DNA of 32,000 bases from Copranaerobaculum intestinale (GTDB lineage Bacteria; Bacillota_I; Bacilli_A; Erysipelotrichales; Erysipelotrichaceae). The notes under the pieces were generated by a model. That model was not told the DNA's origin. It was given only the letters and a program-made list of their open reading frames with translations, and made no database searches. Each line of letters opens with the position of its first letter. Position 1 is the stretch's first letter. Shown here piece by piece: positions 12,808 through 32,000 of this stretch. The stretch spans positions 810,001 to 842,000 of the forward strand of contig NZ_WUUQ01000001.1 of the NCBI RefSeq assembly GCF_009831105.1, read 5' to 3'. Both the position numbers and the translations under genes were made by a program.

Positions 12808-12821
12808 AAGACACCTCCTTA

Positions 12822-12855: not shown

Positions 12856-12879
12856 TTTCTTCACTGTTTAATCCAGATT

Positions 12880-12909: not shown

Positions 12910-12989
12910 TGATTTCTGCTTAAAAAATTAGTTTTTCTTTGATTCACAGAACTTTCATGATATATTAATGACATTCGAGGTGGTATGTT

Positions 12990-14769: not shown

Positions 14770-14902
14770 AGAGAATAAGCAGTTTTTTGAAGAATTTCAT
14801 GAAATTTGAAATTCAATCAGAATTCTGCTTTTTTATATTTTGCAGGCAAGGGTAAAGACCAAGTACTCTGATGCACCATACAGTAGAACAGGAGGTGCTG
14901 TT

Positions 14903-14995
14903 ATGTTTGTATGTATTCTTGTGATTGGTATATCAATATATGGAATATGTCTGTATCGCTATCATCATTCGCATAATTCCTGTCATCGTAAGTGA
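14903..14995 (+). CDS. Small hydrophobic peptide (30 aa)
   Basis: MFVCILVIGISIYGICLYRYHHSHNSCHRK. GGAGGT lies 6 nt upstream of the ATG. A 9-bp hairpin plus T-run (15001-15035) follows directly after the stop. Confidence 0.35.
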   Translation: MFVCILVIGISIYGICLYRYHHSHNSCHRK

Positions 14996-15127
14996 ATGGG
15001 AAATGTGGACTATCGGTTTCGGTAATCCACATTTTATATGATAAAGAGTTTAATCAACAAAATCTCATCTTATAAAAAGTCAAAGAATATAGACAGCTGA
15101 TAAGCTATACATACTTTCATGCACAGC

Positions 15128-15150
15128 AAAAAAACTGCACAAAGGCAGTT
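15128..15150 (-). terminator. Terminator of the D-LDH gene
   Basis: On the minus strand: AACTGC-loop-GCAGTT followed by T7. Confidence 0.6.
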
Positions 15151-15153
15151 ACA

Positions 15154-16143
15154 TTAAATTAATTCGTTTTGAGAAGAGCCGCTTTTTTCAATTTCCGCAA
15201 TATTGGATAAAGAAATCTGAACCATGTTCTTCACTGCTTCATCCGTATAGAAAGCGATATGCGGTGTAACAATGATATTATTGTGATTGATCAATTCTTT
15301 CAGCAGCTGGTCTTCCAGATCATCACCCGCATTGTTTTTCAAATATAAACCATTTTCATATTCGTAAACATCCAGTGCGGCTTTGGCTATCTTATGTGAT
15401 TTTACTGCATCCAGTACATCCTGGGCATCAATCAGAGCACCGCGTGAGGTATTGATTAAGATGACTCCATCTTTCATTTTTGATATTGCTTCTTTATCAA
15501 TGAGATGATAATTATCTTTGGTAAGCGGACAGTGAATGGATATAATGTCGCTTCGTTTCAGCAGCTCATCGAAAGCTACATAGTCTGCAATCTCCTTGAC
15601 CTTATCATTTGGATACAGATCATAGGCGAGGATTGAGTCTGTAAACCCGCGAAAATTGCGGATTGTTTCATATCCAATGCGTCCGGTACCGATGATACCG
15701 ATTGTCATATCCTTTACCTCACGTCCGATGAGTCCTTTGATTGCAAAATTGTAATTGTGCATGCGGCGAATTGTCAGCGGCAGGTTGCGCACACAAGCCA
15801 GAGCCAGCGTAACCGCATATTCACTCACTGCGTTAGGTGAGTAAGCAGGCACATTGCAGGCCCTGATTCCTAATCGCTGAGCTGCATCCAAATCGACTTT
15901 ATCATAACCGGCACAACGAGTTGTCAGAATTTTAATACCAAGTTCATGAATAATTTCCAGCGCTCTTTCATCAGCAATACAGTTACCCTGAATGATGACT
16001 GCATCATGTCCTTTGGCTAAATATGCACTTTCGGATGAGAAGGGATCGATCGTGCATCGTACATCCAAATCATATACGTCAGCGTACTCGTGGAAAAAGG
16101 CTACTTCGTCTTCACGTACGTTATAAGCTAAAACTTTCAACAT
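15154..16143 (-). CDS. ldhD: D-lactate dehydrogenase (D-isomer-specific 2-hydroxyacid dehydrogenase)
   Basis: VPAYSPNAVSEYAV, GTGRIG, LDVYEYE and PHIAFYTDEAVKNMV match the D-LDH pattern. Confidence 0.85.
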   Translation of the reverse strand: MLKVLAYNVREDEVAFFHEYADVYDLDVRCTIDPFSSESAYLAKGHDAVIIQGNCIADERALEIIHELGIKILTTRCAGYDKVDLDAAQRLGIRACNVPAYSPNAVSEYAVTLALACVRNLPLTIRRMHNYNFAIKGLIGREVKDMTIGIIGTGRIGYETIRNFRGFTDSILAYDLYPNDKVKEIADYVAFDELLKRSDIISIHCPLTKDNYHLIDKEAISKMKDGVILINTSRGALIDAQDVLDAVKSHKIAKAALDVYEYENGLYLKNNAGDDLEDQLLKELINHNNIIVTPHIAFYTDEAVKNMVQISLSNIAEIEKSGSSQNELI

Positions 16144-17817: not shown

Positions 17818-18501
17818 TCAAATTGGGGTCAAAGAATTAGAGGTGTTTTTAATGTAATTATCCAGTAATAAAGGGGCTTTCATATTATCTGTATCGGGGT
17901 GAGTATATGTATCCATTGTGATCACAACACTTGCATGACCCATTAGGTATTGCCGCTCTTTTAACGGGACACCAGCTTTGTCGAGCAATGTGGCATAATT
18001 ATGCCGGAAGATATGGGGAGTCAGGGAGTCAATGAATTCATCGTATTCTAGTTCAACGGCTTTTTTATTCATTTTCTTGATAATTGATTCCCACATTTTT
18101 TTGAATGATTGCTGAGTAATCCATTCACCTGATTTTATTGATGTGAATAGGTATTGTTTTTTTAATGTAGTTAAGTAATATGAAAGAAAAGGGAAACATT
18201 GGTCTATAAGGGGTATATCTCTTTCACCCGAATCTGATTTGGTTTCTTTCATAGAGGGTTGATTATTGATAAATTCAACAGTCTTTTTGAAGTAAGCCAA
18301 AGCTTTGCATAATCATGGAATATAATTAATTAATATATTATTTCGTTTGAGATAGTCAGATTTCATAAGAGTCTTATTATTTCCAGCTCTTCAATCGTTG
18401 TGCCATATATCTTTACTACGATTGGATTTCCAGTGTTGTAGCCTCTGCCTACAGTAACGTTTGTTGCGTATCTACGGCCTTTTTTTGTATCGATTTGCCA
18501 T
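17818..18501 (-). pseudogene. Tyrosine recombinase (phage integrase), disrupted
   Basis: The catalytic C-terminal domain is intact (SGERDIPL, HIFRHNYAT, GHASVVITMDTYTH). The N-terminal arm-binding part (MANRYKK/GRRYATNVTVGRGYNTGNPIVVKIYGTTIEELE) is out of frame at an A7 run and followed by stops. The core-binding domain is largely missing. Confidence 0.75.
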
Positions 18502-18573
18502 TTGCATACCTTCGTATAATTTGTTAGAATAGGTAAAGAAAAGGATAGTCTGTCAGGACATTTTTTCTATACA

Positions 18574-18608
18574 AGACACCCGGTGCTTAAAACACCGGGT
18601 GTCTTTTT
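18574..18608. terminator. Strong hairpin just past the lipoprotein gene stop
   Basis: 12-bp stem AGACACCCGGTG / CACCGGGTGTCT. The T-run is on the plus-strand side only. Confidence 0.5.
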
Positions 18609-18612
18609 ATTC

Positions 18613-19383
18613 TTAAACAAAGTTGTTTAAATAAATTTTATTAGCTGTTAAATATTTTAAGAAATTGGCAAATATATTTATAACTTTTATCTCAGCATCA
18701 ATATTATCTTCATCAGATACCCATGAATGTGTATCAGTATTATACGTATAATATGCTTCACCGGTTTTGTATGTAATAGTTTTGTCTTTCCAATTGATAA
18801 GATATAGCTTTCCTTCAATTGTGGTAGCAAATGTATTATTTTCTAAATTAAAAACAGATACCCCAACATTTTGATAATCACCAAAAGTTTCAATTGATTT
18901 TATAATGTATGATTCATCATCTGACTCAAGCTTATATCCCAAATTAATTAAACGTTTTTCCACATCGGAACTATCATCACTTTTTGTATTGCTCGTGGTG
19001 TGCTTCTTGTCATAATAGTCCAGAACATTAATTATTTGGGATTTTTTCAGTCCCATTTCATTCAGCCAATCTAAATAAGCATCATATTGTAATTTTTCAT
19101 CTTTTGAATCATTTTCTTCCTTATCGATGATATTGGCATGCTTCTCGTTAACATCTTCTTTGCTAAACGTGTAATTCGTTCCTACATATGTGTTATCATA
19201 CTTCTGAACCCAAATATAAGATTCATCATCTTTATTTATGTTTGTAAAATAAACATAATGCGTTTCTTCTTCATCTGAAATATTAAATTTGTAACCCTTT
19301 TTCTCTAATAATTCAACTACCTCTGAATTTGATAATTTTGTATTATCATCTTTATTGCTACAAGCCGCCATCCCCAATACCAA
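18613..19383 (-). CDS. Prophage lipoprotein (lipobox LGMAAC) with two similar internal lobes; the signal peptide appears frameshifted
   Basis: ORF-track protein MVLGMAACSNKDD.... A GGAGGA ribosome-binding site plus TTG at 19417 opens MKKVFTALICAI in the +1 frame. Internal repeats: EVVELLEKKGYKFNISDEE and DVEKRLINLGYKLESDDES. Confidence 0.6.
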   Translation of the reverse strand: MVLGMAACSNKDDNTKLSNSEVVELLEKKGYKFNISDEEETHYVYFTNINKDDESYIWVQKYDNTYVGTNYTFSKEDVNEKHANIIDKEENDSKDEKLQYDAYLDWLNEMGLKKSQIINVLDYYDKKHTTSNTKSDDSSDVEKRLINLGYKLESDDESYIIKSIETFGDYQNVGVSVFNLENNTFATTIEGKLYLINWKDKTITYKTGEAYYTYNTDTHSWVSDEDNIDAEIKVINIFANFLKYLTANKIYLNNFV

Positions 19384-19718
19384 TTGCGCATATAAGCGCT
19401 GTAAAAACCTTTTTCAACTTTTTATCCTCCCATAATTTATATGTATAACATGCTCATCCATGTTGATACCCGATTGATTTTTTTCTGATTTCTCTATGCT
19501 GGTATATTTTATTTCATATTCCGTTTTGGAAAAATCTGTTCATGCTTGATTGAATTTTTTGCATGAGGCATTACGTATATAAATTAATTTGCTTATTTAA
19601 TGAACCTTACGATTATTATAATAACTGTCACCTAAAAAAACAACTCACATTACCAGCATATGTATCATTCCCAAAGCAGTTATTTATGCTAGAAAATTGC
19701 TAATAAAAAATGATTTGA

Positions 19719-20162
19719 TCAGTTTAAGCTTATGTGGTTTTGCGATTCATATTCCCAAAAATCATTTGCGATTTTTTCTGGTACACCTTTGTTAATCAAC
19801 AATGATGGTATGCAAAGATCATGGATATCTTCATCCGCCAACAGACAATAACAACCAAAATAGTTTGCTTCAGCTTCTGTACGGTTTCGATATCGCTCTG
19901 CAAGAAAATGATATTCTGTTCCAGGATTGTAATGGATCAGGTAATGACCGATTTCATGATAGAGTACAAACTTCTGATAATTTTCCTCCAAATCCGGTTT
20001 TACAAAAATAATTGCCTTCCTATTATAAATTCGCAGTAATGCATCCATGTTAAGCCCCATCTTCTCGTTCATATAGACCTTTTGAATACTCAGCTGTTGT
20101 AGCATATCCTCAACCGCAACGGTAGGAAATTGTGCCAATAAATCCTGATATTTCTTGAACAT
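19719..20162 (-). CDS. ImmA/IrrE-family zinc metallopeptidase
   Basis: HEIGH motif; 147 aa; lies immediately downstream of, and co-oriented with, an XRE repressor gene. GGAGGG ribosome-binding site. Confidence 0.85.
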   Translation of the reverse strand: MFKKYQDLLAQFPTVAVEDMLQQLSIQKVYMNEKMGLNMDALLRIYNRKAIIFVKPDLEENYQKFVLYHEIGHYLIHYNPGTEYHFLAERYRNRTEAEANYFGCYCLLADEDIHDLCIPSLLINKGVPEKIANDFWEYESQNHISLN

Positions 20163-20173
20163 TGTTAGCCCTC

Positions 20174-20656
20174 CTATTTCAAGTACTTCGAGGCTTTTTG
20201 CTCCATTTCATAAATATCGTTTGCCAAGTCGATCAATTCTTCCTGATTCATGGATTCTATATTCATTCCACCCATTGCATACATCTGCCCGCTGATCATA
20301 AATGCATATGCATCATCAAAGCTTTGAAAATGACGGTTTTCAACCCTAGCATGAACTCGCTGATATTCTAAATTCAATGTAGTTTCTACAGCTTTCTTTC
20401 CATATGCATCAAGTGAGCGGTAATGTGTGATCAGCTGCTTTTCATGCAAGGTATACGTTTCATCTTTAAAGTCAAAAAAGTAATTGGGTGATACATCAAG
20501 AACCTTGCATATACGCGTAAGTGTCTCTAAGTCCGGTTTACTGATATTTCGTTCCCAGTTATTGACCGTTGTATTGCTGACAGAAATCTGACTTGCTAAT
20601 TCATTCTGACGATATCCTTTTAATAGTCGCGCCTCTTTCATCTTTTCACCAAACAT
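20174..20656 (-). CDS. XRE-family (cI-like) repressor
   Basis: HTH segment KEARLLKGYRQNELASQISVSNTTVNNWERN. I prefer the ATG at 20656 (GAGGTGA upstream) over the track start at 20683. Confidence 0.85.
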   Translation of the reverse strand: MFGEKMKEARLLKGYRQNELASQISVSNTTVNNWERNISKPDLETLTRICKVLDVSPNYFFDFKDETYTLHEKQLITHYRSLDAYGKKAVETTLNLEYQRVHARVENRHFQSFDDAYAFMISGQMYAMGGMNIESMNQEELIDLANDIYEMEQKASKYLK

Positions 20657-20711
20657 ACTATCACCTCTTCTTACATCAATCATAGCACATTTGTAAATTT
20701 AATGATATTTA

Positions 20712-20805
20712 AAATTCAATTAAATTGGATTTTTAAATATTGATATCCATTGACATTTGCAATTTGCAGGAATATTATGGTATTAAATCCAATATAATTG
20801 AATTT
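20712..20805. promoter_or_regulatory. Genetic-switch region: consensus rightward promoter bracketed by a 21-bp inverted repeat (putative operators)
   Basis: AAATTCAATTAAATTGGATTT (20712-20732) and its inverted copy AAATCCAATATAATTGAATTT (20785-20805) differ at one position. Between them: TTGACA (20750-20755), 17-nt spacer, TATTAT (20773-20778). Confidence 0.65.
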
Positions 20806-20849
20806 AATTTATAAATGTTCAATTAAACGGTGGTGGGAGGAGAAATGAA

Positions 20850-21260
20850 ATGATTACACAAAAAGACAAGGCAGAACAATTTAAAAGGGATCTGCGTTCC
20901 AGACAATTTTATGAAGGAATGGTACGGGAATATGATTTGAAGCTGGAAGAAATTAGTATCCATCTTCAAGGTGTCAATTCGCCGCGTACCGATGTTGTAA
21001 GAAAGACAAGTCATCATCGGCAAAACAATTTTGTTTATTGGCTTATGGAGGAAGAAATCTGTATCAAAGAGCGAAAGAACTATTGTGATCGGATTGCTCG
21101 GATGGATGAAACATTGGCAAAACTGGAAGATGAAGAGCGGGATTTGATCGTCGATCTTTATGTAAAAAATAAACGTCATGAAAACGTTGCAGATGAACAT
21201 CATATGAACCGACAAAATATGTATAAAAAAATTGACAAAATGCTTTTTCGAATTTTATGA
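20850..21260 (+). CDS. Sigma-70 region-4-like / ArpU-RinA-type phage late-gene regulator
   Basis: 136 aa. The C-terminal ERDLIVDLYVKNKRHENVADEHHMNRQNMYKKIDKML looks like a region-4 HTH. The gene sits where late activators sit in Bacillota siphoviruses. Confidence 0.55.
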   Translation: MITQKDKAEQFKRDLRSRQFYEGMVREYDLKLEEISIHLQGVNSPRTDVVRKTSHHRQNNFVYWLMEEEICIKERKNYCDRIARMDETLAKLEDEERDLIVDLYVKNKRHENVADEHHMNRQNMYKKIDKMLFRIL

Positions 21261-21263
21261 AGG

Positions 21264-21401
21264 TTGCGACAATGTACCAAAGCAGAAATGATATGATACA
21301 TATGCGGAAGAAAAACAAGCTTTTCTTCCTCTGCCTTTTGTTTGAACGGCATAAAAAAACAAAGCGTGTGAAGGCTGTGCTTCCGAAATAATTCACAGGA
21401 T
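21264..21401 (+). repeat. Late promoter/leader element, copy 1
   Basis: Blocks TTGCGACAATGTACC, GCCTTTTGTTTGAAcGGCATAAAAAAACAAAGC, TGAAGGCTGTGCTTC and CACAGGAT are shared with 26452-26581. Block 4 ends 20 nt before the ATG in both copies. Confidence 0.7.
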
Positions 21402-21421
21402 GTTCAAAATTGGGAGGGCTT

Positions 21422-21889
21422 ATGAATACTTTACAGTCAATGAAATTTAGCGGATATGGTATGGATTATCCCACCGCGGAGGTAAAGAAGTACAGTGATA
21501 AGGAATTAAACGATCGAATTGCAAAAGCAAAAAGAAAAGCAATAGAAAAATTTATTCGAAAACTTGGCTATACAGATGAAGCAGCACTACAGGATTCGCT
21601 TCACTATGAAGGGAAAGCGGATTTATTGCTTCGTGAAGAAGCATGGAAGCAGGAAAAACAGAAGCTTCATGTGGAATTGAGTCGATGCCGACGAATGCTC
21701 ATGTTGTATGAACAAAATATTGATCCCATGTTCTTTGAATTTATTCTCTATCAGCTTCAAGATGAAAGCGATACTGAAATATTCCAATCCAAACTTCAGA
21801 AGTTTATGGAAGATCATCCCCAATATTCCAAAGCGTATTCTAAAACGGATGAATTACATCCCTTCGTACTGCTGTATAAGAATACATAG
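21422..21889 (+). CDS. Phage protein of unknown function
   Basis: I prefer the ATG at 21422 (GGGAGGG upstream). The protein is charged and helical. No family recognised. Confidence 0.6.
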   Translation: MNTLQSMKFSGYGMDYPTAEVKKYSDKELNDRIAKAKRKAIEKFIRKLGYTDEAALQDSLHYEGKADLLLREEAWKQEKQKLHVELSRCRRMLMLYEQNIDPMFFEFILYQLQDESDTEIFQSKLQKFMEDHPQYSKAYSKTDELHPFVLLYKNT

Positions 21890-21944
21890 GTTCTTTCATT
21901 TTGAACTTTTAGTATAGCTTTTCTATTACATCAGGAGGATCATC

Positions 21945-22400
21945 ATGTTGGAAAACAAGCAGTTAGAATCTTTGACAATGTATGATCAGAAACGTATTGT
22001 TGATAGTCTTCTGCCATTTTTGGACACCATTCCTGATCTGCCTTCACCGATTAAATTTGGAGTCTTACATAAACAAAGTGTTTCCATGTGCGTCCAGTTT
22101 TTAAAAAGTGAAGTACAGAAAAGACAGGATATTACCGGGGGATATACAGGAAGTCTGTATTTCTCAATCTGGTATCGATTCCAAGAAGCGGATGCAGCGA
22201 CAGAATTATATGGTTCTAATGTCATGTATCAGATTAATGAATTTTTTGATTCTGCCTGCGAAAATAATGCATTGCCAGTATTAGGCGATGATATGCAGTA
22301 CTTGAAAATAGGAATGATTGAGCTTCCGACGGTAGAACGAAAAATAGACAATATGTTGGATTGCATGGCTATTTTTGAGTGTAGAATTGAACATCAATAA
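21945..22400 (+). CDS. Putative tail-completion / tail-terminator-type protein
   Basis: 151 aa with a strong AGGAGG ribosome-binding site, immediately upstream of the major tail protein gene. The call rests on position and size only. Confidence 0.45.
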   Translation: MLENKQLESLTMYDQKRIVDSLLPFLDTIPDLPSPIKFGVLHKQSVSMCVQFLKSEVQKRQDITGGYTGSLYFSIWYRFQEADAATELYGSNVMYQINEFFDSACENNALPVLGDDMQYLKIGMIELPTVERKIDNMLDCMAIFECRIEHQ

Positions 22401-22418
22401 AAAAAGGAGAAAACAAAT

Positions 22419-22922
22419 ATGACTTCAGTAAATGCAGCAGGTATCGCTACGCGCGATGAAATGTTATCGTATATGAATACAGGATCTGGCGATCAGGCAG
22501 TATGGAGCCTGATCGGACAGGGTTTTACAGAATTGACAGAAGCTTTAAATGCAAAGACTAAGGATAGTCAGTATATTCACCAGAAATCGGGAACATCTTC
22601 CGTGATTGGATATGCCCCTACTTTTACATTTGTGGCAGAGCTTGATAAAGCGGATCCAGTGGCATCCTTTATTGCCAATATTGGACGTGAGCGTAAAATC
22701 GGTGCGGAATGTGAGACCGATATTGTGAATGTTTATTCCTGGCTGCCGGGTACAACTGAGGGCTCTGTGGTTGCTTATCAGCAGCATGTAGCCGTGAAAG
22801 TGGATAATAGTGGCTCCGGTGTCGGCGGTGAAGCAATGGGTCTTGCCGGCGCTCTGTTATACAAGGGTGATGCAGTAAAAGGGGAATGGAATCCAACTAC
22901 AAAGACTTTTACAGCAAAATAA
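22419..22922 (+). CDS. Major tail protein (TP901-1-like tail tube)
   Basis: 167 aa. N-terminal ...SYMNTGSGDQAVWSLIGQGFTELTEALNAKT... and its position ahead of the chaperone/TMP genes fit this family. Confidence 0.78.
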   Translation: MTSVNAAGIATRDEMLSYMNTGSGDQAVWSLIGQGFTELTEALNAKTKDSQYIHQKSGTSSVIGYAPTFTFVAELDKADPVASFIANIGRERKIGAECETDIVNVYSWLPGTTEGSVVAYQQHVAVKVDNSGSGVGGEAMGLAGALLYKGDAVKGEWNPTTKTFTAK

Positions 22923-22927
22923 GATCA

Positions 22928-22955
22928 AAGCGGATATTCATTATCCGCTTTTTTA
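22928..22955 (+). terminator. Intrinsic terminator directly after the major tail protein gene
   Basis: AAGCGGATA-loop-TATCCGCTT followed by T5. Confidence 0.7.
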
Positions 22956-22964
22956 ATAAGAATA

Positions 22965-23150
22965 GCAATTACCATCTTTTATTGACTGTGTTCAGCATAT
23001 TAAAAAAATCTCGATTCATTACTGCTGAAGCGATGAATCGTGAATATCCCGTTGGTTTAGCTTTTAAACGAGGTTGAAATTAATCGAAAGGAAATTGATA
23101 TACAATCTGATACTATGTACTATTTGAATACTTCTAATCTAGAATGTTAG
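22965..23150 (+). pseudogene. Relic of a duplicated tail-chaperone 3' end fused to an internally deleted gp15-like gene
   Basis: 22999-23110 aligns base-for-base (roughly 80% by eye) with 26940-27054, the chaperone/gp15 junction. 23123-23156 aligns with the gp15 3' end at 27575-27600. Confidence 0.6.
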
Positions 23151-23186
23151 TATATGTCGTCTAAAAGAAATTATATAATAAAAACA

Positions 23187-23286
23187 GATATCAAAAGAAG
23201 TCTAAAGCTATTGGAAAAGCAAATAGAAGATGATATGCTGAAAACATGAAAGAAGAGAGGAATTATTATGAAAAGAAATTTTTTAG
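23187..23286 (+). repeat. Conserved leader/mini-ORF block, copy 1 (upstream of paralog A)
   Basis: 3 mismatches over 98 nt against 24030-24127. 77 nt (23208-23284) are identical to 27648-27724. Confidence 0.85.
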
Positions 23287-23516
23287 GTTGTTTTAAAATG
23301 GATCCATGCGATATTCGTGATCATATGTTTAATGAAATTATAATGGGAATACAAAAGAATGGAGGAGAAATTTTAAGTACTCAAATGGTAAGTACTCGTC
23401 AATCTTTAACTACTTTTTTCTTAGTGCTTTACGAGGATAATAACTTATTTTCTGAAATAAATACTTTATTAGAAAATTATAAAGAAATTACAAAAAAAAC
23501 CACATGGCATCAATAA
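23268..23516 (+). CDS. Small protein, unrecognised family, paralog A (82 aa)
   Basis: AGAGGAA ribosome-binding site. Shares MKRNFL, GIQxNGGEIL and FFLVLYEDNN with paralogs C and E. Confidence 0.65.
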   Translation: MKRNFLGCFKMDPCDIRDHMFNEIIMGIQKNGGEILSTQMVSTRQSLTTFFLVLYEDNNLFSEINTLLENYKEITKKTTWHQ

Positions 23517-23590
23517 TAGTATTTAAGGAAAAAAAGACATTTATTTGACATGAAATAATCCTAATATGAAAGTTAATATGGAGGGAAAAG

Positions 23591-23824
23591 ATGAAAAGAG
23601 TATTTGTAAGTGAATTGAGTATTTTCAAAACTTTAAAAAGAAAAAAAACTAATAAGTATTATAATGAAATAATTTGTGGAATACAGGAGAGAGGTGGTGA
23701 AATCTTTTCAATAAATTTAAGCAATGCAACTTATGGTAATGAAAACGAACTTTTTATTGTTGTATATGAAGATAACAATAATAATGATGAAATCGAGAAA
23801 TTTTTAGATACGTTTACATCATAG
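23591..23824 (+). CDS. Small protein, same family, divergent paralog B (77 aa)
   Basis: GGAGGG ribosome-binding site. Family blocks GIQERGGEIFS and LFIVVYEDNN are present. Lacks the conserved leader. Confidence 0.6.
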   Translation: MKRVFVSELSIFKTLKRKKTNKYYNEIICGIQERGGEIFSINLSNATYGNENELFIVVYEDNNNNDEIEKFLDTFTS

Positions 23825-23833
23825 TGATTTTTT

Positions 23834-23859
23834 GACCACACGTAAGTGTGGTTTTTTTT
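23834..23859 (+). terminator. Intrinsic terminator after paralog B
   Basis: ACCACAC-GTAA-GTGTGGT followed by T8. Confidence 0.75.
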
Positions 23860-24029
23860 ATGAAAGAAAGGGGAGAGTTACGAATAAAAAGATAATCTTG
23901 AATTGAGTAAGAATATATCTAATGTGGATTTGATAGTCGAAAATGCCATAACATGTTGAATTATCTATTAATAATCGTGGTGAATCGTAAACCAACACAA
24001 TAGAGTATATTACTATAATGAATGATATT

Positions 24030-24129
24030 GATATCAAAAGAAGTTTAAAGCTATTGGAAAAGCAAATAGAAGATGATATGCTGAAAACAGGAAAGAAAAG
24101 AGGAATTATTATGAAAAGAAATTTTTTGA
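24030..24129 (+). repeat. Conserved leader/mini-ORF block, copy 2 (upstream of paralog C)
   Basis: See copy 1. Here the in-frame TGA is replaced by GGA, so the mini-ORF and paralog C are fused (track ORF 24018-24266). Confidence 0.85.
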
Positions 24130-24361
24130 GTACTTTTGGAATATCTTATTTTAAAATTGAAACTTTTATGTTCAATGAGATTTTGGTTGGTATACAAGAG
24201 AATGGAGGGGAAGTGTTAAGTACACAAGTTTATTCTCCTAATTCTGGAGCTATTACTTTTTTTTAGTATTGTATGAAGATAATGGATTTTATTCTGAGAT
24301 AAGTGCTTTTTTAAAAGACTATGAAAAGATTAAAAAAAATATGAATTGGCATAACAACTAA
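24111..24361 (+). pseudogene. Paralog C, interrupted by a frameshift in a T8 tract
   Basis: Reads MKRNFLSTFGISYFKIETFMFNEILVGIQENGGEVLSTQVYSPNSGAITFF*. The -1 frame continues LVLYEDNGFYSEISAFLKDYEKIKKNMNWHNN*. Confidence 0.6.
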
Positions 24362-24467
24362 TTTATGTTTTTTGAAAGAAATGAGGGAAATATTTGCTTG
24401 AAAATGAGGGAAAAGCAATGTGAATATGCTAGGTTAAGGTTAGATAAAAAGAGTGTGTATAAGTTAA

Positions 24468-24720
24468 ATGAATTTTCTGGCAATGTGAAAAAATTGGATG
24501 AATGATGTATAGAATAACATTATGAATCATTTACAAAAATTAGACGGTGAAATTATTACTGCTTCATTTCCAGCAGATTTATGGTGCTTTTATTTTTGTT
24601 TTATACGTAGATAATAATATGTATCAAGAAATCTCTGAGAGTCTTACGAATTATGAATCATGCAATATTGACTGTGTCTATGAAATAAAATATTATTTTT
24701 TAGAAGATTTAATTTATTGA
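24468..24720 (+). pseudogene. Paralog D, degenerate (several stops and frameshifts)
   Basis: Reads MNFLAM*. Later fragments are ...LQKLDGEIITASF... and YGAFIFVLYVDNNMYQEISESLTNYES..., which retain the family blocks. Confidence 0.45.
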
Positions 24721-24799
24721 CAAAGTATAATTTTTCTAAAAGTTATGCTTTGTCATTTTTTATCCTGACTTCACTATTAACAATTACAATAATAATTAT

Positions 24800-25292
24800 A
24801 GAATTTAAGAGCTATTCTTTTTCAATATGCCAGTTCTTCTTCATAATTTGGTTTTGATTATTTAAATGTATTTAAAAATCATTTATCTTTTACTTTCACA
24901 GAGCCACAATCCTAAGATATCATTGTACCCATTTACATCAACGTCTTGTATTATGTAAACAGCATATTTCTTCACCTTTTATCTACTTTTGACGTATATA
25001 TAATTAAGAATGCGTAGCATGCAAATGCTGATAACATTTTCTTCTAATTCTGGTAATACGAGAAAGATTATGTCTGAAACTATTTTATGTAATATCGAAA
25101 AGCTATTAATTTTTTTCCGCTAATTTGAAATATTGTGTTTTAATACACTGACGTACCAGCTTATATCTTATTCTCAATACTATTTACATCTCTTTGATGT
25201 TAAAAATATCCGCCATGATTATTGATTTCAATATTACCTTACGTGATATTATTGACTATATCTATTTGTTCATTTTTAGACTTTTTTGCCAT
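24800..25292 (-). pseudogene. IS256-family (mutator-type) transposase relic
   Basis: On the minus strand: GAGGAA ribosome-binding site plus ATG at 25292 (MAKKSKNEQIDIVNNIT*). Further on, ...VYIIQDVDVNGYNDILGLWLCES... resembles the GYxxILGxxxGExE block around the first catalytic Asp region. Many stops; only about 0.5 kb is left. Confidence 0.4.
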
Positions 25293-25320
25293 ATATTCTT
25301 CCTCTACTTTCTTGTATCGC

Positions 25321-25370
25321 AAAAAAAGAAAAACCGTGTAAATTGAGAATAAATAGCTCAACTTACACAG
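25321..25370 (-). terminator. Hairpin plus T-run on the minus strand, downstream of the island lipoprotein gene
   Basis: 14-nt arms CCGTGTAAATTGAG / CTCAACTTACACAG (12 of 14 positions pair). On the minus strand they are followed by TTTTTCTTTTTTT. Confidence 0.55.
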
Positions 25371-25616
25371 TTTGTATTACATATATTCTATATCACACTT
25401 TATTACTCAGTTCACCCAATCTATCTTCTGTCATATCACTTATCAATTTTAAGAACATGTTAGAAATATTTTAATGTTTATTATATTCATTCTTTACTTT
25501 CATTGAATGGAAAGCCTTTATATTTACATATCTATTAACATTTATTTTTTAAGACTTAGATAGGATGCCAAGATGTGTAGTACATAAATACTGATATTCA
25601 TAAGTGATAAAAAAGA

Positions 25617-26009
25617 TTAATGATTGTTGTCTCTTTCATATAAAGTAGTTCCAGTAATATCTAAATCTTCATAGGTTAAATCTAATTCTTTTAAGAGACT
25701 GTCAATCTTCTTTTTTGCTTTTTTATCACAATTACTATTTTTATCTGGATCCGTATTACTTAACACACAATAACTTGGGTTATATGATGTTGATGATTTT
25801 GCACCACTATTATCTTCTTTTGGGAAAAAAGTGAAAGTTATATCATCTCTAGTAAAAATATATCCTTTCTTATCTTTGAAATCATAAAATTCTTCTTCAA
25901 ATCCATTATCCAGAAGAATAGAGCGAATGTCTTTTTCTTCTTTCCCACCACAACCGACTATACAAGATAAAAATAAGACTGCAAATAAAATAAGTGCTGT
26001 TTTTCTCAT
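25617..26009 (-). CDS. Small lipoprotein (130 aa)
   Basis: Signal peptide plus lipobox MRKTALILFAVLFLSCIVGC. Opposite strand to the tail genes, inside the AT-rich insert. Confidence 0.7.
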   Translation of the reverse strand: MRKTALILFAVLFLSCIVGCGGKEEKDIRSILLDNGFEEEFYDFKDKKGYIFTRDDITFTFFPKEDNSGAKSSTSYNPSYCVLSNTDPDKNSNCDKKAKKKIDSLLKELDLTYEDLDITGTTLYERDNNH

Positions 26010-26451
26010 AAATTCATCTCTTTATCTTAATATTAGCATATTAAATAAGGATTTCCAATAAAGATATATTTACTATACTAATACTTTTAGATTACATTCA
26101 GATGCTTCTTTATTAGGTTTCAATTTAGCTATTTTAAGAATTAATAAATTATGTGTTTAAAAACAGATATTTGCTTGAATTTATTCTAGTTAACATAAGT
26201 ATTTTTGTATAAAAATTTTCCAAAATCAAGATGAAAATAGTCAGATAGAATGGTGTGGTACATAAAATTTAATTTCTCATATATACACGAATCAGAAATA
26301 AATATTAATTGTTAAAAATTGGTATTCTTTATACTGTATTTGTGCTAGTTAAATGTTAATGATTATAAAACTGAATCATCAAATTTATAAAGGGAAAGAC
26401 ATATTCCTAGAACTGCGGAAATAGAAAAATAAGACAAAAATAATAACTATA

Positions 26452-26581
26452 TTGCGACAATGTACCTAGATATCCATGATAAGATGATAGTGTGGTTTGA
26501 TAGATAGAAAACCTTTGCCTTTTGTTTGAATGGCATAAAAAAACAAAGCAATGAAGGCTGTGCTTCTTTTTTACACAGGAT
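26452..26581 (+). repeat. Late promoter/leader element, copy 2
   Basis: Same four conserved blocks as 21264-21401, and the same 20-nt distance from CACAGGAT to the start codon (26602). Confidence 0.7.
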
Positions 26582-26601
26582 ACTAAAGGGAGAAAATAAA
26601 T

Positions 26602-27003
26602 ATGAGTAAATTTGAATTTAAGAATCAGGAAAAGCCAGAATTCTTGAAACTTCAGATAAATGGAAGAAACTATTCATTTAATCCATTGTCATTATCGGTG
26701 AAAAGAGCTTCAGAAAAATTTTTGAAGGGACAAAAAGTGCTTATGCGCCAGTCAAAGAAAGAAAATTTAAAACAGGAAGAAATCTCTGATATTGTTTATA
26801 AATGCTGTGATTTAGTAAGAGAAACCATTGATTTGATTCTAGGTAATGGAGCGTATGAAAAAATATTTGGAGGCAGAACGATGGATTTTGAAGAAAATCA
26901 GGAATTAGTAACCTTTATTTTTCAAGAAATTGCATCATTTACCAAAAATAAGAATCTGACGGTACATGCGGAAGAAATGAATCATGAACATCTTGTTGGA
27001 TAA
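26602..27003 (+). CDS. Putative tail assembly chaperone
   Basis: 133 aa, acidic. Sits at the position preceding the gp15-like and tape-measure genes. GGGAG ribosome-binding site. Confidence 0.55.
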   Translation: MSKFEFKNQEKPEFLKLQINGRNYSFNPLSLSVKRASEKFLKGQKVLMRQSKKENLKQEEISDIVYKCCDLVRETIDLILGNGAYEKIFGGRTMDFEENQELVTFIFQEIASFTKNKNLTVHAEEMNHEHLVG

Positions 27004-27586
27004 GCTTCCGAACAAGGTTGAAATTAATCAGAAGGAAATTGATATTCGATCTGATTTCAGACAGGGAATACAGTTTGAAATGCTGATGGCTGATTCATCA
27101 ATTTCCTATATGGATAAGATGTTAAAAGCTATTTTAATATACTATCCAAAAGTTCCGGAGGATATATCTGCATGTGTTGAAAAACTTATATGGTTTTATA
27201 ACTGTGGAATGAAATTGAAAGAGAGAAAAAATGTGAATGGGAAATTAACAAATAAACCGATTTTTTCCTATGAGCAAGATCAATATCTTATTTATTCAGC
27301 TTTCCTGCAGTATTATCAAATTGATCTGAATGATATTGAATATTTGCATTGGTGGAAATTTAAAGAGCTTTTTCAAGAATTGCCAGATGAATCAAAAATA
27401 AAACAAGTGATGATGTACCGATCCATACCGATTACTTCGAATATGTCTGAGGATCAAAGACAATTTTATGCAAATATGAAAAATATATATCGTTTAAATG
27501 ATGATCGTTCGGAAAAACAGATTGCTAATTCTTTTGCATCTATCCTTGCTTCTGGGATGATGAATGCCCCTGAACTTGAATACTAG
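26984..27586 (+). CDS. Gp15-like tail assembly protein
   Basis: 200 aa. N-terminal LPNKVEINQKEIDIRSDFRQGIQFEMLM resembles the Gp15 family of TP901-1/A118-like phages. Overlaps the upstream gene by 20 nt. Confidence 0.55.
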   Translation: MNILLDKLPNKVEINQKEIDIRSDFRQGIQFEMLMADSSISYMDKMLKAILIYYPKVPEDISACVEKLIWFYNCGMKLKERKNVNGKLTNKPIFSYEQDQYLIYSAFLQYYQIDLNDIEYLHWWKFKELFQELPDESKIKQVMMYRSIPITSNMSEDQRQFYANMKNIYRLNDDRSEKQIANSFASILASGMMNAPELEY

Positions 27587-27647
27587 AATATATCAACTTA
27601 AAAAAATCATATTGTAAAACAGATTAATGATGAAAAAGTGTTTAAAT

Positions 27648-27726
27648 CTATTGGAAAAGCAAATAGAAGATGATATGCTGAAAACATGAAAGAAGAGAGG
27701 AATTATTATGAAAAGAAATTTTTTGA
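27648..27726 (+). repeat. Conserved leader/mini-ORF block, copy 3 (upstream of paralog E)
   Basis: 77 nt identical to copy 1. Weaker similarity extends upstream to about 27615. Confidence 0.85.
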
Positions 27727-27965
27727 GTATATTTGGGATTGAACCATTCAAAATTCGAGATTACATGTTAAATGAAATATTAATGGGAATACAAGAAAAT
27801 GGGGGAGAAATTTTAAATACACAAATACAAAAGTCATATCCTAATCATTATGCATTTTTCTTAGTGTTGTATGAGGATAATAATCATTATTCTGAAATTC
27901 ATGCATTTTTAGAAAGTTATGAAGAGATTACGAAAAAAACCGTATGGCATCAACAAAATACTTAA
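27708..27965 (+). CDS. Small protein, same family, paralog E (85 aa)
   Basis: 52 of 82 aligned residues are identical to paralog A (counted by eye). Located between the gp15-like gene and the tape-measure gene. Confidence 0.7.
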   Translation: MKRNFLSIFGIEPFKIRDYMLNEILMGIQENGGEILNTQIQKSYPNHYAFFLVLYEDNNHYSEIHAFLESYEEITKKTVWHQQNT

Positions 27966-27990
27966 AGAATAAAATCACAAATAATTTGGG

Positions 27991-28017
27991 AAAAGAAATC
28001 AAATGATTTCTTTTTTT
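27991..28017 (+). terminator. Intrinsic terminator between paralog E and the tape-measure gene
   Basis: AAAAGAAATC / GATTTCTTTT stem followed by a T-run, 30 nt before the TMP start codon. Confidence 0.7.
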
Positions 28018-28048
28018 ATCTTGATTAATAAAAGAAAGGAATGGTTAT

Positions 28049-30361
28049 ATGATAGAGAATTATGAAATAGATTCAAAGACATTTTTAAACCAAATGGATC
28101 AGCTATCTATCTCCGTACAGAAGGCAATGCAAATGATGGGTGAAAGTATTTCTGTAACCATGAGTGATTTGGCTTCTACGTTAGATAGAACTATTCAATA
28201 TATGGACACATTTGCAAGTAGTACTGCTTCAGTTAGTGATGCACAATCCACGGCGATAACAAGCATAACACTGTTCAATGGGGTTATGGGGATGTTAAGC
28301 GCAACGATAAATATTGCTAATACCTGTGCAGAAAACTTTAATCTTGCAATGCTTGCAAGTCCATATGTTATCGTCGCTACAGCAATTGCTGGAGTAGTAA
28401 GTGCTCTGGGAGTATTATCATCCTTCATGGGTAACGAAATAAGTGAGCATCAGCGTGCCATGGATGCGATCAATAAAGAAATTGATGCAAGAAATGATTT
28501 AAAAAGTAAACAAGAGGAACAATTAGCAGCCAATTTAAGTGAAGCAGTTAATATTCAGGGATTGAATAATGAGCTCAATAAACTTGTAAATGCGAATGGT
28601 GAAGTAAAAGCGGGCTATGAAGATAGAGCCGCTTTTATTATATCTACATTAAATAGTGCTTTAGGAGAACAGATTAAAATAGAAAATGGCGTGGTAACTG
28701 GTTACGATAACGCATCAGGAGCCATTGATAACAAAATTGCGAAATTACGAGCTGAAGCTGTACTGGAAGCAGAATTGCCTATTTATAAAAAAGCATTGAT
28801 AGAATTATCCGAGGCTCAGGTTAAAGCGGATAAATTAGAAAGTGAAATGTCCGAATTAAAAACAAAAAGGAAGGCCAAAGAAGCTGAGCTTGAAGCTGAA
28901 TATCATGATAATTGGAGACAAAAAGCTTTAGAAAAAGGAGATCTTCGTTTAGCAGAATTATCACAATTAGAATTAGAAACTGATACAAAGCAAGAGCAAT
29001 ATGATCAGCAGAATAAACTTATTGAAGGATATTATGATGATATTTCGCTCTATGAAACAAATGCTGCGTTAATTGCCAGTGGCAATGCTGAGAATTATGC
29101 AAAAGTCCAAATGGAATCTGCTGTAACCAAAGCACAATCTGTTGAAGAGAAAAAAATAGCTTTGCAAAAAGAGATTGATGCGGAAACAGATCATATTGAT
29201 TACTTGAAAGAATTAAAGAATAAAGAAAAGGATGAAGAAAAACAACGTCAAATTCAAGCTCAAATTGAGGCTGAAGAGTTGAAACTCACTGGCTATCAAA
29301 ATGAAATTGACGGATTTGTAGAGCAAGGGGAGAAAATAGCAGAGCTAGGAAAAATTAAAAATAATGATGAATTGAGCGCGTTGGAAACATTTATTAATAG
29401 CAAACAAGAGAAACTTATAGAAATGAATCAAACCGAGAGTTCACAATGGACTGAGCAGCAACAGCAAGAGGCAGCAGATTTACAAAAATCGATAACCGAT
29501 AATTTGAAATTATATACAGATTATGCTGACAAAAAGATTTTAAAAGCAAAAGAAAAAACGGCAAAGCTGAATGAAAATTCAACTCAAGAGGAGAAGGATG
29601 CGGCAGCAGCAGCCGAACGTGAAGCGGCGAACACATTAGAAATATTAGGACAGAATGCAATTGATAAATTAAATGTTTTGGAAGATTTAAAACAGCGTAA
29701 GAAAAATGGAGAATCCGGTATAACCGATGATATGATCGAAGAAGCTGCCAGACAAGCAAAGGAAGCTGAAAAAGGCTATAAAAAAGTCGCAAATAAAGTG
29801 GAAGGAAGTTTTAAGGACCTACCTGAAAGCTCACGTAAAATCTTTGGCGATGTAATGATACCAATGCTAGATGAAATGCAGAAGAAAGAAGAACCGTTGT
29901 TTAAAAAAGCGGATCGAATAGCTGGGGGAATCCTAGATCGATTGAAAAAATCCTTTGACATACATTCACCTTCCCGTAAAGTGCGTCAAATTTTCCAATA
30001 TGTAATGGAAGGTGCCAAAATAGGATTGGATGATCGAACTCCGGAATTGTTAAAACAGACTGATGCTATTTCATCTGATGTTTTAGAGTCTTTCCTAAAT
30101 CTGGATGTATCAGAAGTAAATCGAATGGTTGATAAGATGCAAGATGCATTCCATCGAGAAAATTTTAAGATAAATGGTTTGATACAATCAAGTTATTCAC
30201 ATGAATTGATGACTACCGGAAAATTACATGTCGATGTTCCTGAATTAAAAGCAACTTTAAAGGGTAATCTTGAGAATCACATTTCCATTGACGGGCGTGA
30301 AACGGCAGTCGCATTAACGCCTTTTATCAGTGAAGAAATAGCGTTTCAAGGAGGTCTATAA
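28049..30361 (+). CDS. Tail tape measure protein
   Basis: 770 aa: hydrophobic segments near the N terminus, a very long E/K-rich coiled coil, and a C-terminal DIHSPSRK-type motif. Lies immediately upstream of the Dit and Tal genes. Confidence 0.88.
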   Translation: MIENYEIDSKTFLNQMDQLSISVQKAMQMMGESISVTMSDLASTLDRTIQYMDTFASSTASVSDAQSTAITSITLFNGVMGMLSATINIANTCAENFNLAMLASPYVIVATAIAGVVSALGVLSSFMGNEISEHQRAMDAINKEIDARNDLKSKQEEQLAANLSEAVNIQGLNNELNKLVNANGEVKAGYEDRAAFIISTLNSALGEQIKIENGVVTGYDNASGAIDNKIAKLRAEAVLEAELPIYKKALIELSEAQVKADKLESEMSELKTKRKAKEAELEAEYHDNWRQKALEKGDLRLAELSQLELETDTKQEQYDQQNKLIEGYYDDISLYETNAALIASGNAENYAKVQMESAVTKAQSVEEKKIALQKEIDAETDHIDYLKELKNKEKDEEKQRQIQAQIEAEELKLTGYQNEIDGFVEQGEKIAELGKIKNNDELSALETFINSKQEKLIEMNQTESSQWTEQQQQEAADLQKSITDNLKLYTDYADKKILKAKEKTAKLNENSTQEEKDAAAAAEREAANTLEILGQNAIDKLNVLEDLKQRKKNGESGITDDMIEEAARQAKEAEKGYKKVANKVEGSFKDLPESSRKIFGDVMIPMLDEMQKKEEPLFKKADRIAGGILDRLKKSFDIHSPSRKVRQIFQYVMEGAKIGLDDRTPELLKQTDAISSDVLESFLNLDVSEVNRMVDKMQDAFHRENFKINGLIQSSYSHELMTTGKLHVDVPELKATLKGNLENHISIDGRETAVALTPFISEEIAFQGGL

Positions 30362-31020
30362 TGAAAATAAATGATCATAATTTTACAGAATTTCGCGCAA
30401 GTGTTGTGCGATTCTCCCCCGTAAGCATGGAGTTTACGCAAGATATTTTATTTGGCGGTAACAGCTACTATCCGATCATGGGCGAAAAGTCATTAAAGCC
30501 GCAGCAGCGTGAATTGGTAATCGACTTTACCCGTGAAGAAGATATCAGTAATTTTTCTGCGGAAGCCCAAAAAGAATGTGTGCTTGATCTGGATGATGGA
30601 TATCGCTATCACTGCTATCCAACTACCTATGGCAAAATCAGCGAGGAAGCATACGGAGCTTATACCGGTATTTATACGTTTTATACGTTAAAGCAGAAAC
30701 CGTTGATTACGGAAAATTTGAATGATTCAATCATGAATCAGGGAAATATTGAAACAAACATGATTTATGAAATCACATCAAAACAAGCGATTGATGATTT
30801 TTATGTGGGTGATATTCATGTAATGAGTCTGCCCACAGATAAAACGCTGATCATCGACGGTATCGATAAACGCATTTATTATCAGGACAATCCGGATGTT
30901 TCAGCCTTCGACAGTGTGATGATTTCACGATTTCCGATGTTAAAAGCTGGACTTAATGAAATCACTAAAAGCGATCCCAGTGTGCAGGTAGTCGTGAAGT
31001 ACTATCCAACCTTTATGTAA
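30361..31020 (+). CDS. Distal tail protein (Dit, siphovirus tail family)
   Basis: 219 aa. ATGA overlap with the TMP stop. Position and size fit Dit. Confidence 0.65.
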   Translation: MKINDHNFTEFRASVVRFSPVSMEFTQDILFGGNSYYPIMGEKSLKPQQRELVIDFTREEDISNFSAEAQKECVLDLDDGYRYHCYPTTYGKISEEAYGAYTGIYTFYTLKQKPLITENLNDSIMNQGNIETNMIYEITSKQAIDDFYVGDIHVMSLPTDKTLIIDGIDKRIYYQDNPDVSAFDSVMISRFPMLKAGLNEITKSDPSVQVVVKYYPTFM

Positions 31021-31032
31021 GGAGGCAGGACT

Positions 31033-32000
31033 ATGTTACTAATAAAAACAGCGCAGGGCTATCTGCCGTTGGAAAACCGAACCAATTTTAGTATAACTAC
31101 CGAATATGAGGGCGAGCAATCGCTCTCTTTTGATATTCAGCCATCAGATTCTAACTTTACATATTTGAAGGAAGAATCATCACTTCGATTTGAAGATAAT
31201 GATTTTCTGATTAAATCAATTAACCAGCGAAAAGAAATAGCTACTATCACGGCTGAAATTGACATGGATGAATGGAAAAAACAGATATATCCTCGTTTTA
31301 TTCGTAAAAACATAGGGTTTACGGAATTGCTGGAGTACATTATTCCATCCGGATGGACGCTCGTAGGTGCTGGTACAGTTGTAGGGCACACAGATATTGA
31401 CATGGAAGGATGCACTGATTACGAAATTCTAATGGCATGTAAACAGTTATATGGTGTGGTCTATGAGTATCATACCGCTTCAAAACAGATCAAGATCATT
31501 CATCCGGATCTGATTCAGCCGCGGGGTTTGTATATGAGTGATGAATTGAATTTGCAGAATTTGGAATTTAAAGGATCAAGCAGCGGATTCGTAACCAGAT
31601 TGTATGCATATGGTAAAAAAACGGAAACAAAAGATGAGGACGGCAATGTTTCAGCGGTTTCCTATGTGAATTTTGCGGTGCTCAACAAGGGCAAAGAATA
31701 TATTGAAAATCATGAATATAGTGAAAAAATTGTTTCTGCCTATTGGCATGATGACGCAATCACGGATGAAAAAGAGCTTTTGGATGAAGCAATCGAAAAA
31801 TTAAAAATAGCTGCAATTCCCAATCGCTCTTATAGCTGTAAACTTATCGATCTTTCAAGAATAAATCCCAAATATCGCATGCTGGATTTTAAAATGTATG
31901 ATAAACCTACCTTAATTGATAATCGGTGTAATTTATATATTACTCATCAGATCGTACAATACAAACGGTATCCAGATAATGAAGGTCTTAATGAAATTGC
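31033..32000 (+). CDS. Tail-associated (Tal) / phage minor structural protein, N-terminal part; continues beyond the window
   Basis: AAGGAGG ribosome-binding site plus ATG at 31033, with an open frame to the window edge. Absent from the ORF track because it has no stop in the window. The N-terminal region resembles prophage tail endopeptidase/Tal N domains. Confidence 0.7.
   Translation, partial: MLLIKTAQGYLPLENRTNFSITTEYEGEQSLSFDIQPSDSNFTYLKEESSLRFEDNDFLIKSINQRKEIATITAEIDMDEWKKQIYPRFIRKNIGFTELLEYIIPSGWTLVGAGTVVGHTDIDMEGCTDYEILMACKQLYGVVYEYHTASKQIKIIHPDLIQPRGLYMSDELNLQNLEFKGSSSGFVTRLYAYGKKTETKDEDGNVSAVSYVNFAVLNKGKEYIENHEYSEKIVSAYWHDDAITDEKELLDEAIEKLKIAAIPNRSYSCKLIDLSRINPKYRMLDFKMYDKPTLIDNRCNLYITHQIVQYKRYPDNEGLNEI

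Follow-up and report, generated by a model that had tools for sequence, protein, structure and literature searches.

The window analysed here is the whole 32,000-nt stretch of Copranaerobaculum intestinale DNA (contig NZ_WUUQ01000001.1, positions 810,001 to 842,000), and the related loci that were compared with it carry the labels L001, L002 and so on. A small gene, named copy E, lies in the window between a Gp15-family tail chaperone gene and the tape-measure protein (TMP) gene of a phage-tail element. E is an intact open reading frame (ORF) of 85 amino acids (aa) with an ATG start. It begins 121 nt past the stop of the Gp15 gene and ends 83 nt ahead of the TMP gene. The features at this junction are as follows.

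26984–27586, + strand: Gp15-family tail chaperone gene (FtbI-like; PF06854, E 2e-51; phrog_706)
27627–27707, + strand: leader of E, with a promoter-like site, an in-frame TGA and a ribosome-binding site (RBS)
27651–27656, + strand: candidate −35 element TTGGAA in the E leader
27674–27679, + strand: candidate extended −10 element TATGCT, after a candidate spacer of 17 nt with TG at 27671–27672 (TTGGAA-N14-TGA-TATGCT)
27687–27689, + strand: in-frame TGA in the E leader
27695–27701, + strand: RBS GAGAGGA in the E leader
27708–27965, + strand: E, an 85-aa member of a novel small-protein family; acidic, with the motifs GIQExGGEI and YEDN
27987–28021, + strand: terminator-like hairpin and T-run between E and the TMP gene
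28049–30361, + strand: TMP gene, 770 aa (PHROG tape-measure matches)
28049–28360, + strand: TMP codons 1–104, hypervariable, up to the conserved hydrophobic segment PYVIVATAIAGV

The location of E between a gp15-like gene and the TMP gene, pointed out in an earlier note on this DNA, was confirmed with these coordinates. The leader, the 85-aa family member and the hairpin with its T-run, described there as interposed before TMP, were all seen, and the hairpin and T-run stand 31 nt ahead of the TMP start. Our explanation of the locus is a tentative one, in which doubt slightly outweighs confidence. E would be a resident moron-type cassette at the Gp15/TMP junction of a head-less, monocin-like element, and its product would be a protective or partner protein tied to the N-terminus of TMP (TMP-N).

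Pairwise dN/dS values among the family orthologs and paralogs (E, A, B and C-type copies across strains) were 0.18–0.45. Therefore, the family members are regarded as real genes under purifying selection, and these ratios show that E, previously undescribed, is one of them. A selfish or decaying repeat with no current function is a very improbable reading of the same data. Copies C and D of the window are pseudogenes and the copies of L098 are decayed, as such a repeat would have it. However, dN/dS is well below 1 for the E, A, B and C-type orthologs across strains, the family motifs are kept down to ~25–30% identity, and intact ORFs with an RBS were found in all lineages.

No match to E was obtained from Pfam, PHROGs, NCBIfam, PADLOC or the PDB sequences. 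A known defence or anti-defence family was ruled out, since PADLOC gave no match and the PDB gave no sequence relative. The possibility of a chaperone paralog, raised in the earlier note, was checked and dismissed: E has no Pfam, PHROG or NCBIfam match, and hhalign against gp14 and Gp15 returned a probability of 0.1–0.3%. The protein is acidic, with ~11 D/E against 7 K/R as counted on the sequence. No signal peptide, lipobox or membrane segment was seen in E by eye, and a cytoplasmic location is predicted. The AlphaFold2 calculation on a seven-sequence alignment predicted a β-α-β-β-α-β fold of the ACT-like type, with a pLDDT of 83 in the best model. The Foldseek matches of this model were generic ACT/ferredoxin-like domains only (MgtC C-domain, IlvN, NikR C-domain and ribosomal protein S6). 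The predicted fold is like that of the MgtC C-terminal domain 2lqj (TM-score 0.78), but the sequence identity with the ACT/ferredoxin-like domains (2lqj, IlvN and NikR C-domain) is only 7–17%, and no Pfam ACT match appeared at E up to 1. The ACT-like fold is very common and generic and therefore implies no function.

The family was searched for on a large scale. The word-indexed search of 5.8 billion proteins gave four family clusters, and the exhaustive HMMER search of 1.84 billion representatives gave 23 family proteins at E ≤ 1e-3. The 23 proteins are 61–120 aa long and have in common an N-terminal MKRxF, then GIQExGGEI and YEDN. Among true phages, no homolog was present in 50,697 phage records or in IMG/VR, nor at the loci of A118, phiCD38-2 and LPCPA58. 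The JGI metagenome scans gave no family match, and the 80 Gp15 loci retrieved from bacterial genomes held no member. No homolog outside the Erysipelotrichaceae clade was found in the protein-database searches and the Gp15 loci, and every recoverable family context is a tail element of the window's type. As far as these searches reach, E belongs to a tiny, unannotated new small-protein family that is found only in this clade of elements.

The leader of E is better conserved than the gene itself. Over the ~75 nt ahead of the ATG, copies A, C and E hardly differ at all, and the copies of L001 and L002 are nearly identical to them. Despite these near-identical leaders, the coding regions of A and E have 63% aa identity and a dS of 0.69. 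A promoter score based on the extended −10 pattern, with a threshold of ≥10, was determined for 24 family copies and for random windows of the same loci. The threshold was reached in 71% of the family copies versus 11% of the random windows, and the −10 element of the family copies always ends 21–32 nt before the ATG. The pattern was found in about ten independent lineages, and some copies are recent duplicates. At 27646–27664 the −35 element is overlapped by an imperfect inverted repeat, CTATTGG...CAAATAG. This repeat may be an operator, which would account for a leader so much more conserved than the gene behind it. The leader codon seven upstream of the ATG and in frame with it (27687–27689 in E, 23247–23249 in A and 24090–24092 in C) is TGA in A and E, GGA in C and the E-type copy of L001, and TAA in the C copy of L002. 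The GGA versions give N-terminally extended ORFs such as the 102-aa P0001. When it is read in frame, the leader gives ...LLEKQIEDDMLKT, as though it were derived from a coding region. Recoding of the in-frame TGA and an N-terminal extension were ruled out by the variation of this codon among the copies. No Rfam family was found in the leader, and its folding was no better than that of shuffles (z +0.4 to −1.0).

The hairpin behind E (27987–28018) has a 14-bp A/U-rich stem that runs into the T-run. It was missed by the generic terminator scan because it has too few G-C pairs. The earlier note had called this hairpin and T-run strong; both are present, but the hairpin alone is not strong (−12.8 kcal/mol, core −7.3, z −1.6 against shuffles). 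A hairpin with 'TTTTTTTAT' was found 19–38 nt ahead of the next start codon in nine of nine junctions, and at least five distinct stem sequences are represented. The putative junction terminator is thus conserved in position in all nine and not in sequence, and most orphan copies of the family retain it. The GC content of the E region is ~25%, versus 29–40% for the tail genes on either side, 29–32% in the chaperone genes and 33–44% in the TMP and tube genes.

A moron, in the sense established for the lambdoid phages (HK97, for instance), is a promoter-gene-terminator unit that lies between late genes; bor and lom of lambda are examples. The E cassette fits this classical definition because it has a promoter-like site, a small gene, a terminator, a deviant composition and an insertion between genes that are adjacent in relatives. 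With respect to the insertion, no gene separates Gp15 from TMP in A118, L018 and L019, all of which are without the family. Co-expression of E with tail morphogenesis, as the earlier note proposed, is not the best reading, since most copies have their own promoter-like site and terminator.

The protein family and the tail genes do not always go together. L011 (Amedibacillus sp. YH-ame10) contains six intact family genes with promoter-like sites and terminators, and no tube, gp14 or Gp15 gene was found in it between the host V-ATPase operon and the TMP gene. In L098 the Gp15 3′ end and the TMP, Dit, Tal and receptor-binding protein genes are intact, and the family copies are all decayed. Because the family is kept in the former and decayed in the latter, an accessory rather than an obligatory assembly role is suggested. 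On this comparison, E is best read as a self-contained accessory cassette and not as a morphogenetic gene or a chaperone paralog.

The Eag-type chaperones are encoded upstream of effectors with N-terminal transmembrane segments. By analogy, E could be a third tail-assembly chaperone that is made with the tail operon and serves the variable, hydrophobic TMP-N, a role that we consider decidedly unlikely. E has the orientation of the tail genes and lies between the chaperone and TMP genes, its slot is conserved even in single-copy elements, and it varies along with the N-terminal part of TMP, at whose end stands a hydrophobic segment; all of this would suit a chaperone. However, E does not resemble gp14 or Gp15, a promoter-like site of its own precedes it, and the gene of its presumed client lies beyond a terminator. 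The contrast between L098 and L011 also speaks against this role, and multi-copy arrays are unusual for assembly genes. The family is absent from L018 and L019, which are related and head-less, and from A118 and the monocin (PMC11830787).

The constant presence of a terminator behind the junction copy, together with the lack of room for a promoter before the TMP start, would also agree with a regulator of read-through. Such a protein would attach to its own mRNA at the terminator and, as a timer, permit the expression of the TMP, baseplate and lysis genes, and the predicted β-α-β-β-α-β fold is common to RRM-like RNA binders. On the other hand, E is acidic, the hairpin sequences are unconserved while the protein motifs are conserved, and the orphan copies have nothing downstream to regulate. 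This regulator is therefore a highly improbable explanation. The accessory cassette remains our reading of E.

The Gp15/TMP junction is the place where the family is met most regularly. In eight elements (the window, L001, L002, L004, L011, L015, L016 and L017) the gene just ahead of TMP is a family member, and the gap between the two is 47–94 nt. The junction copy is the sole family copy in L016 and L017, and the proteins there are only ~30% identical to E. Because a member abuts TMP in all eight elements, including these divergent and single-copy ones, the junction is taken as the home of the family, that is, as its conserved and probably ancestral position. The same position had been suggested as ancestral in the earlier note; the synteny of the eight elements, the single copies of L016 and L017 and the junction remnants at copy A support it.

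It had also been stated that in tail modules of the TP901-1/A118 type the TMP gene normally comes straight after the chaperone genes. This holds for A118, in which nothing lies between gp15 and TMP, and for the monocin (PMC11830787), but it does not hold for phiCD38-2, which has a DUF4236 gene between its Gp15 and TMP genes, or for LPCPA58, which has a 169-aa gene there. In addition, 57 Gp15-bearing bacterial loci were surveyed with a crude rule, by which the first ORF of ≥450 aa after Gp15 was taken as TMP. Gp15 and TMP were adjacent in ~20 of the 57 loci, and one or more ORFs were interposed in ~35 of them. In L018, an Erysipelotrichaceae metagenome-assembled genome (MAG) with a 52% identical Gp15, the Gp15 and TMP genes overlap by 4 nt, and in L019 ([Eubacterium] hominis) they are separated by 42 nt; neither has a family member. 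Because ~35 of the 57 loci hold interposed ORFs and none of the 80 Gp15 loci holds the family, the slot seems to be a general landing site and the family its clade-specific occupant.

Lipoprotein genes are found in the same surroundings. L098 has three paralogous small lipoprotein genes (391–717, 1165–1500 and 2348–2680) that alternate with the decayed family copies between Gp15 and TMP, and an Ltp-family lipoprotein gene adjoins L008. In the window, a small lipoprotein gene (lipobox ...CGGK) is located at 25617–26009 on the − strand, within the accessory region. Lipoproteins are typical prophage exclusion factors, and Ltp of TP-J34 targets TMP. Apart from the junction, an extra intact family member (C-like, 84 aa) was found at 8464–8718 of L004, and also in L005–L007. 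Located behind the endolysin gene, where the far end of the element meets host genes, it has its own strong promoter-like site, TTGAAA-N14-TGC-TATGCT; the window stops short of the corresponding position.

The use of the slot by unrelated genes (the DUF4236 gene of phiCD38-2, the 169-aa gene of LPCPA58 and the ORFs of ~35 of the 57 loci) raises another explanation. E could be a generic moron unrelated to TMP, placed at a hot spot and giving the host another service such as anti-phage exclusion, regulation or small-ligand sensing, with the TMP 5′ end dragged along by recombination. We regard it as possible, though rather unlikely. The lipoprotein genes that share the slot in L098 or lie near it in the window agree with it, and so does the extra copy behind the endolysin gene in L004–L007, away from TMP. 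It is opposed by the restriction of the family to this type of element, where one copy always abuts TMP.

The cassette and the start of the TMP gene vary together in place. The window and L002 are 98–100% identical across the element except for copy B (87%), copies C and D, and 27756–28350 (74–89%). The last region takes in the coding part of E, its terminator and 300 nt at the start of TMP. The type of member in the slot is E in the window, A in L002, B in L001 and E-like in L004, and a 95%-identical E-type is present in the other slot of L001. Between lineages, residues 1 to ~100 of TMP have 16–30% identity, the next 130 aa have 46–64%, and the rest of the protein has 45–100%. When the TMPs of L001 and the window are compared, the C-termini are 98–100% identical and the N-termini are unrelated. 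L011 contains three TMP N-terminal fragments, each behind a family copy, and two of its paralogous modules are 25% identical in the family gene, 23% in TMP-N and 87% in the next 130 aa. In L099 a truncated TMP gene is followed by a family gene and then by a full TMP gene. Orphan modules with 5′ TMP fragments are therefore found in the window, L011 and L099. As judged from these alignments, the comparisons show that the cassette and the first ~100 TMP codons are the hypervariable part of the element, exchanged by recombination. The retention of TMP 5′ fragments by orphans in three independent lineages is at odds with a generic moron. The divergence of the family and that of TMP-N gave no correlation (Spearman rho −0.02 over 36 pairs, most of them saturated), which would suit it.

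The family HMM recognised five copies in the window: A (E 2e-29), B (E 1e-28), C, D and E (E 3.5e-29). Three of them (A, B and E) are intact; a 1-nt deletion splits C, and D is a C-terminal fragment that has lost its start codon. E was thought to be the best-preserved copy; A and B proved to be intact too, and what stands is that E is the sole copy flanked by intact tail genes. The array upstream consists of the following features.

23023–23111, + strand: remnant of the gp14 3′ end and the gp15 5′ end (81% identical to 26967–27055; tblastn match to gp15 aa 1–24)
23190–23516, + strand: orphan copy A, leader plus an 82-aa ORF (23268–23516)
23591–23853, + strand: orphan copy B, 77 aa (23591–23824), plus a terminator (23834–23853)
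23888–24026, + strand: degenerate 5′ remnant of an L001-type TMP gene (aa 4–50), downstream of B and its terminator (tblastn and sequence comparison)
24033–24363, + strand: orphan copy C (24111–24363) and its leader; inactivated near 24255
24444–24755, + strand: copy D, a B-like pseudogene (~24444–24720) with a recognisable C-terminal half; terminator at 24718–24755

A remnant of the gp15 3′ end aligns immediately ahead of the A leader. Because copy A carries the gp14 3′, gp15 5′ and gp15 3′ remnants, the array is considered to have arisen by duplication of the junction and then deletion. These remnants, identified by similarity, show that copies A–D are orphan modules left by duplication or replacement of the junction. 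In copy C one base is lost beside a T8 run near 24255, which changes ACATTTTTTTT to ACTTTTTTTT; the copy is intact in L002 and L003. The lesion may be a real pseudogene or an assembly error.

Our best guess for the role of E, guided by these comparisons, is a protective or partner function toward the TMP N-terminus. E would be transcribed from its own extended −10 promoter, also while the tail genes are repressed, and its terminator would shield the TMP, baseplate and lysis genes from this transcription. The transcripts of the tail operon would read through or antiterminate at the E terminator and at a second hairpin behind the tail tube gene (22927–22951). Read-through is expected because there is no room for a promoter between the E terminator and the TMP start. 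The product, small, acidic and ACT-like, would have a protective or partner function in the cytoplasm, most probably toward the variable TMP N-terminal domain. E would then be an immunity-like or neutralising factor and not a component of tail assembly.

Polymorphic toxin/immunity loci with orphan modules are known from CdiA-CT/CdiI of contact-dependent inhibition (CDI) and from Rhs. A bolder version of the protective role can be drawn by analogy with them, and we think it unlikely. The ~100 residues of TMP-N would be a polymorphic effector and the small ACT-like protein its cognate cytoplasmic antidote, which would make E the first protein-based immunity or neutralising partner of a tailocin. 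Strains would accumulate orphan modules of antidote and TMP-N, each with its own promoter, as in CDI and Rhs.

Several points weigh against a protective or partner cassette. The divergence of the family gave no rank correlation with that of TMP-N, as described above, though most pairs are saturated, and the A-type and E-type proteins, which are 64% identical, adjoin nearly the same TMP N-terminus (88%). Immunity to a particle that acts from outside the cell would be an unusual task for a cytoplasmic protein, and the known tailocins use receptor incompatibility and not immunity proteins (monocin and efagin papers). The conservation of a single slot in divergent elements would agree with a structural or assembly role as well. 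The ACT-like fold leans on one good AlphaFold2 model, with pLDDT values of 64–68 for the other four. Finally, the promoter and terminator calls are at the level of consensus, and several copies are recent duplicates and thus not independent.

The element that hosts E starts ~17.8 kb into the window (17818–32000), looks complete and runs on past the window's end; the stretch of L001 to compare with it is 1–15807. Its other features are listed below.

17818–18300: truncated integrase, catalytic C-terminal part only, in the left part of the element
19719–20162, − strand: ImmA-like protease of the regulatory module
20174–20683, − strand: XRE repressor of the regulatory module
20850–21260, + strand: 136-aa protein with weak similarity to sigma-70 region 4, followed by two further small genes
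22419–22922, + strand: tail tube gene (phrog_3099/820; NF047353 tube_lmo2291, Listeria type)
22927–22951: terminator hairpin after the tail tube gene (hairpin scan)
26602–27003, + strand: gp14-like chaperone gene (DUF6673, FtbH-like), with a 20-nt overlap with the Gp15 gene
30361–31020, + strand: distal tail protein (Dit) gene (Pfam and PHROG matches)

The gene order is ImmA, XRE, three small genes, tube, the paralog array, gp14, Gp15, the family member, TMP and Dit. The regulatory module (19719–21260) is present in the same order in L001, L002, L008, L015 and L016. Past Dit, the genes for Tal, a Gp10_C receptor-binding protein, two small proteins of holin size and an Amidase_2 lysin follow in the related contigs, and host genes come after them. 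The lysis genes are present in L001, L004 and L016; the window ends at 32000, before them. No head, portal, terminase, packaging or replication genes were found in the element of the window or in L001, L002, L004 and L016. From its gene content, the host is a probable head-less, monocin-like phage-tail element, that is, an F-type tailocin. In the monocin, FtbF is the terminator protein, FtbG the tube, FtbH and FtbI the chaperones, FtbJ the TMP and FtbK the Dit (PMC11830787). The window is 98–100% identical to an NCBI MAG labelled Erysipelotrichaceae bacterium (GCA_018375995.1). A full-text literature search for "tailocin" and "Erysipelotrichaceae" together returned no papers.

Some further observations were made on these features. 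The hairpin at 22927–22951 is G+C-rich and bidirectional, and in A118 a putative terminator is annotated at the corresponding place, behind the tube/gp13 genes. An isrP match from Rfam at 22923–23065 (− strand) overlaps this terminator and is probably due to chance, with 30 bits versus a gathering score of 45 and an E of 0.016. In the overlap of the gp14-like and Gp15 genes (26984–27003), Gp15 is in the +1 frame, and no obvious slippery sequence was seen there.

The Erysipelotrichaceae are common gut bacteria, and the window shows a head-less tail element in them with a conserved extra gene that the monocin lacks. E and the TMP start are the part that differs between strains otherwise 99% identical. 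If E is indeed a partner or antidote of the TMP N-terminus, it would bear on how F-type tailocins kill and on how producers and their kin are spared. If it is simply a moron, a new small-protein family would still be gained, together with evidence that the Gp15/TMP junction receives accessory genes in general.

Among the known systems, the Listeria monocin is the nearest to the whole element. It is also head-less and has the same succession of regulators, terminator protein, tube, two chaperones, TMP, Dit, hub, fibres and holin/lysin (PMC11830787), and the tube protein of the window fits the Listeria-type model NF047353. However, FtbI of the monocin is followed by the TMP FtbJ with no gene interposed (PMC11830787), and the element of the window is known from its genes alone. 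The DUF4236 gene of phiCD38-2 (its gp15) and the other slot genes have the same insertion point as E, and these phages, with a 44% identical Gp15, are the closest true phages. Unlike E, these slot genes encode 170–220 aa and occur in single copy, and they have no sequence relationship with it. The Ltp-type superinfection-exclusion lipoproteins are prophage-encoded protective factors aimed at TMP, as is proposed for E, whereas E, a predicted cytoplasmic protein, lacks both a signal peptide and a lipobox. With the phage morons the E cassette shares a predicted sigma-70-type promoter, a small gene, an intrinsic terminator, the insertion between genes adjacent in relatives and a lower GC content. 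It departs from them in that the family is kept in one slot across divergent elements, amplified in arrays and tied to the hypervariable part of a neighbouring structural gene. Compared with the CDI and Rhs loci, the variable end is N-terminal, the small gene is upstream, and the module is known here from sequence alone. The likeness to these loci lies in a terminal domain that is hypervariable as far as a conserved segment, a small gene beside it that is variable too, and displaced orphan fragments accompanied by a small gene.

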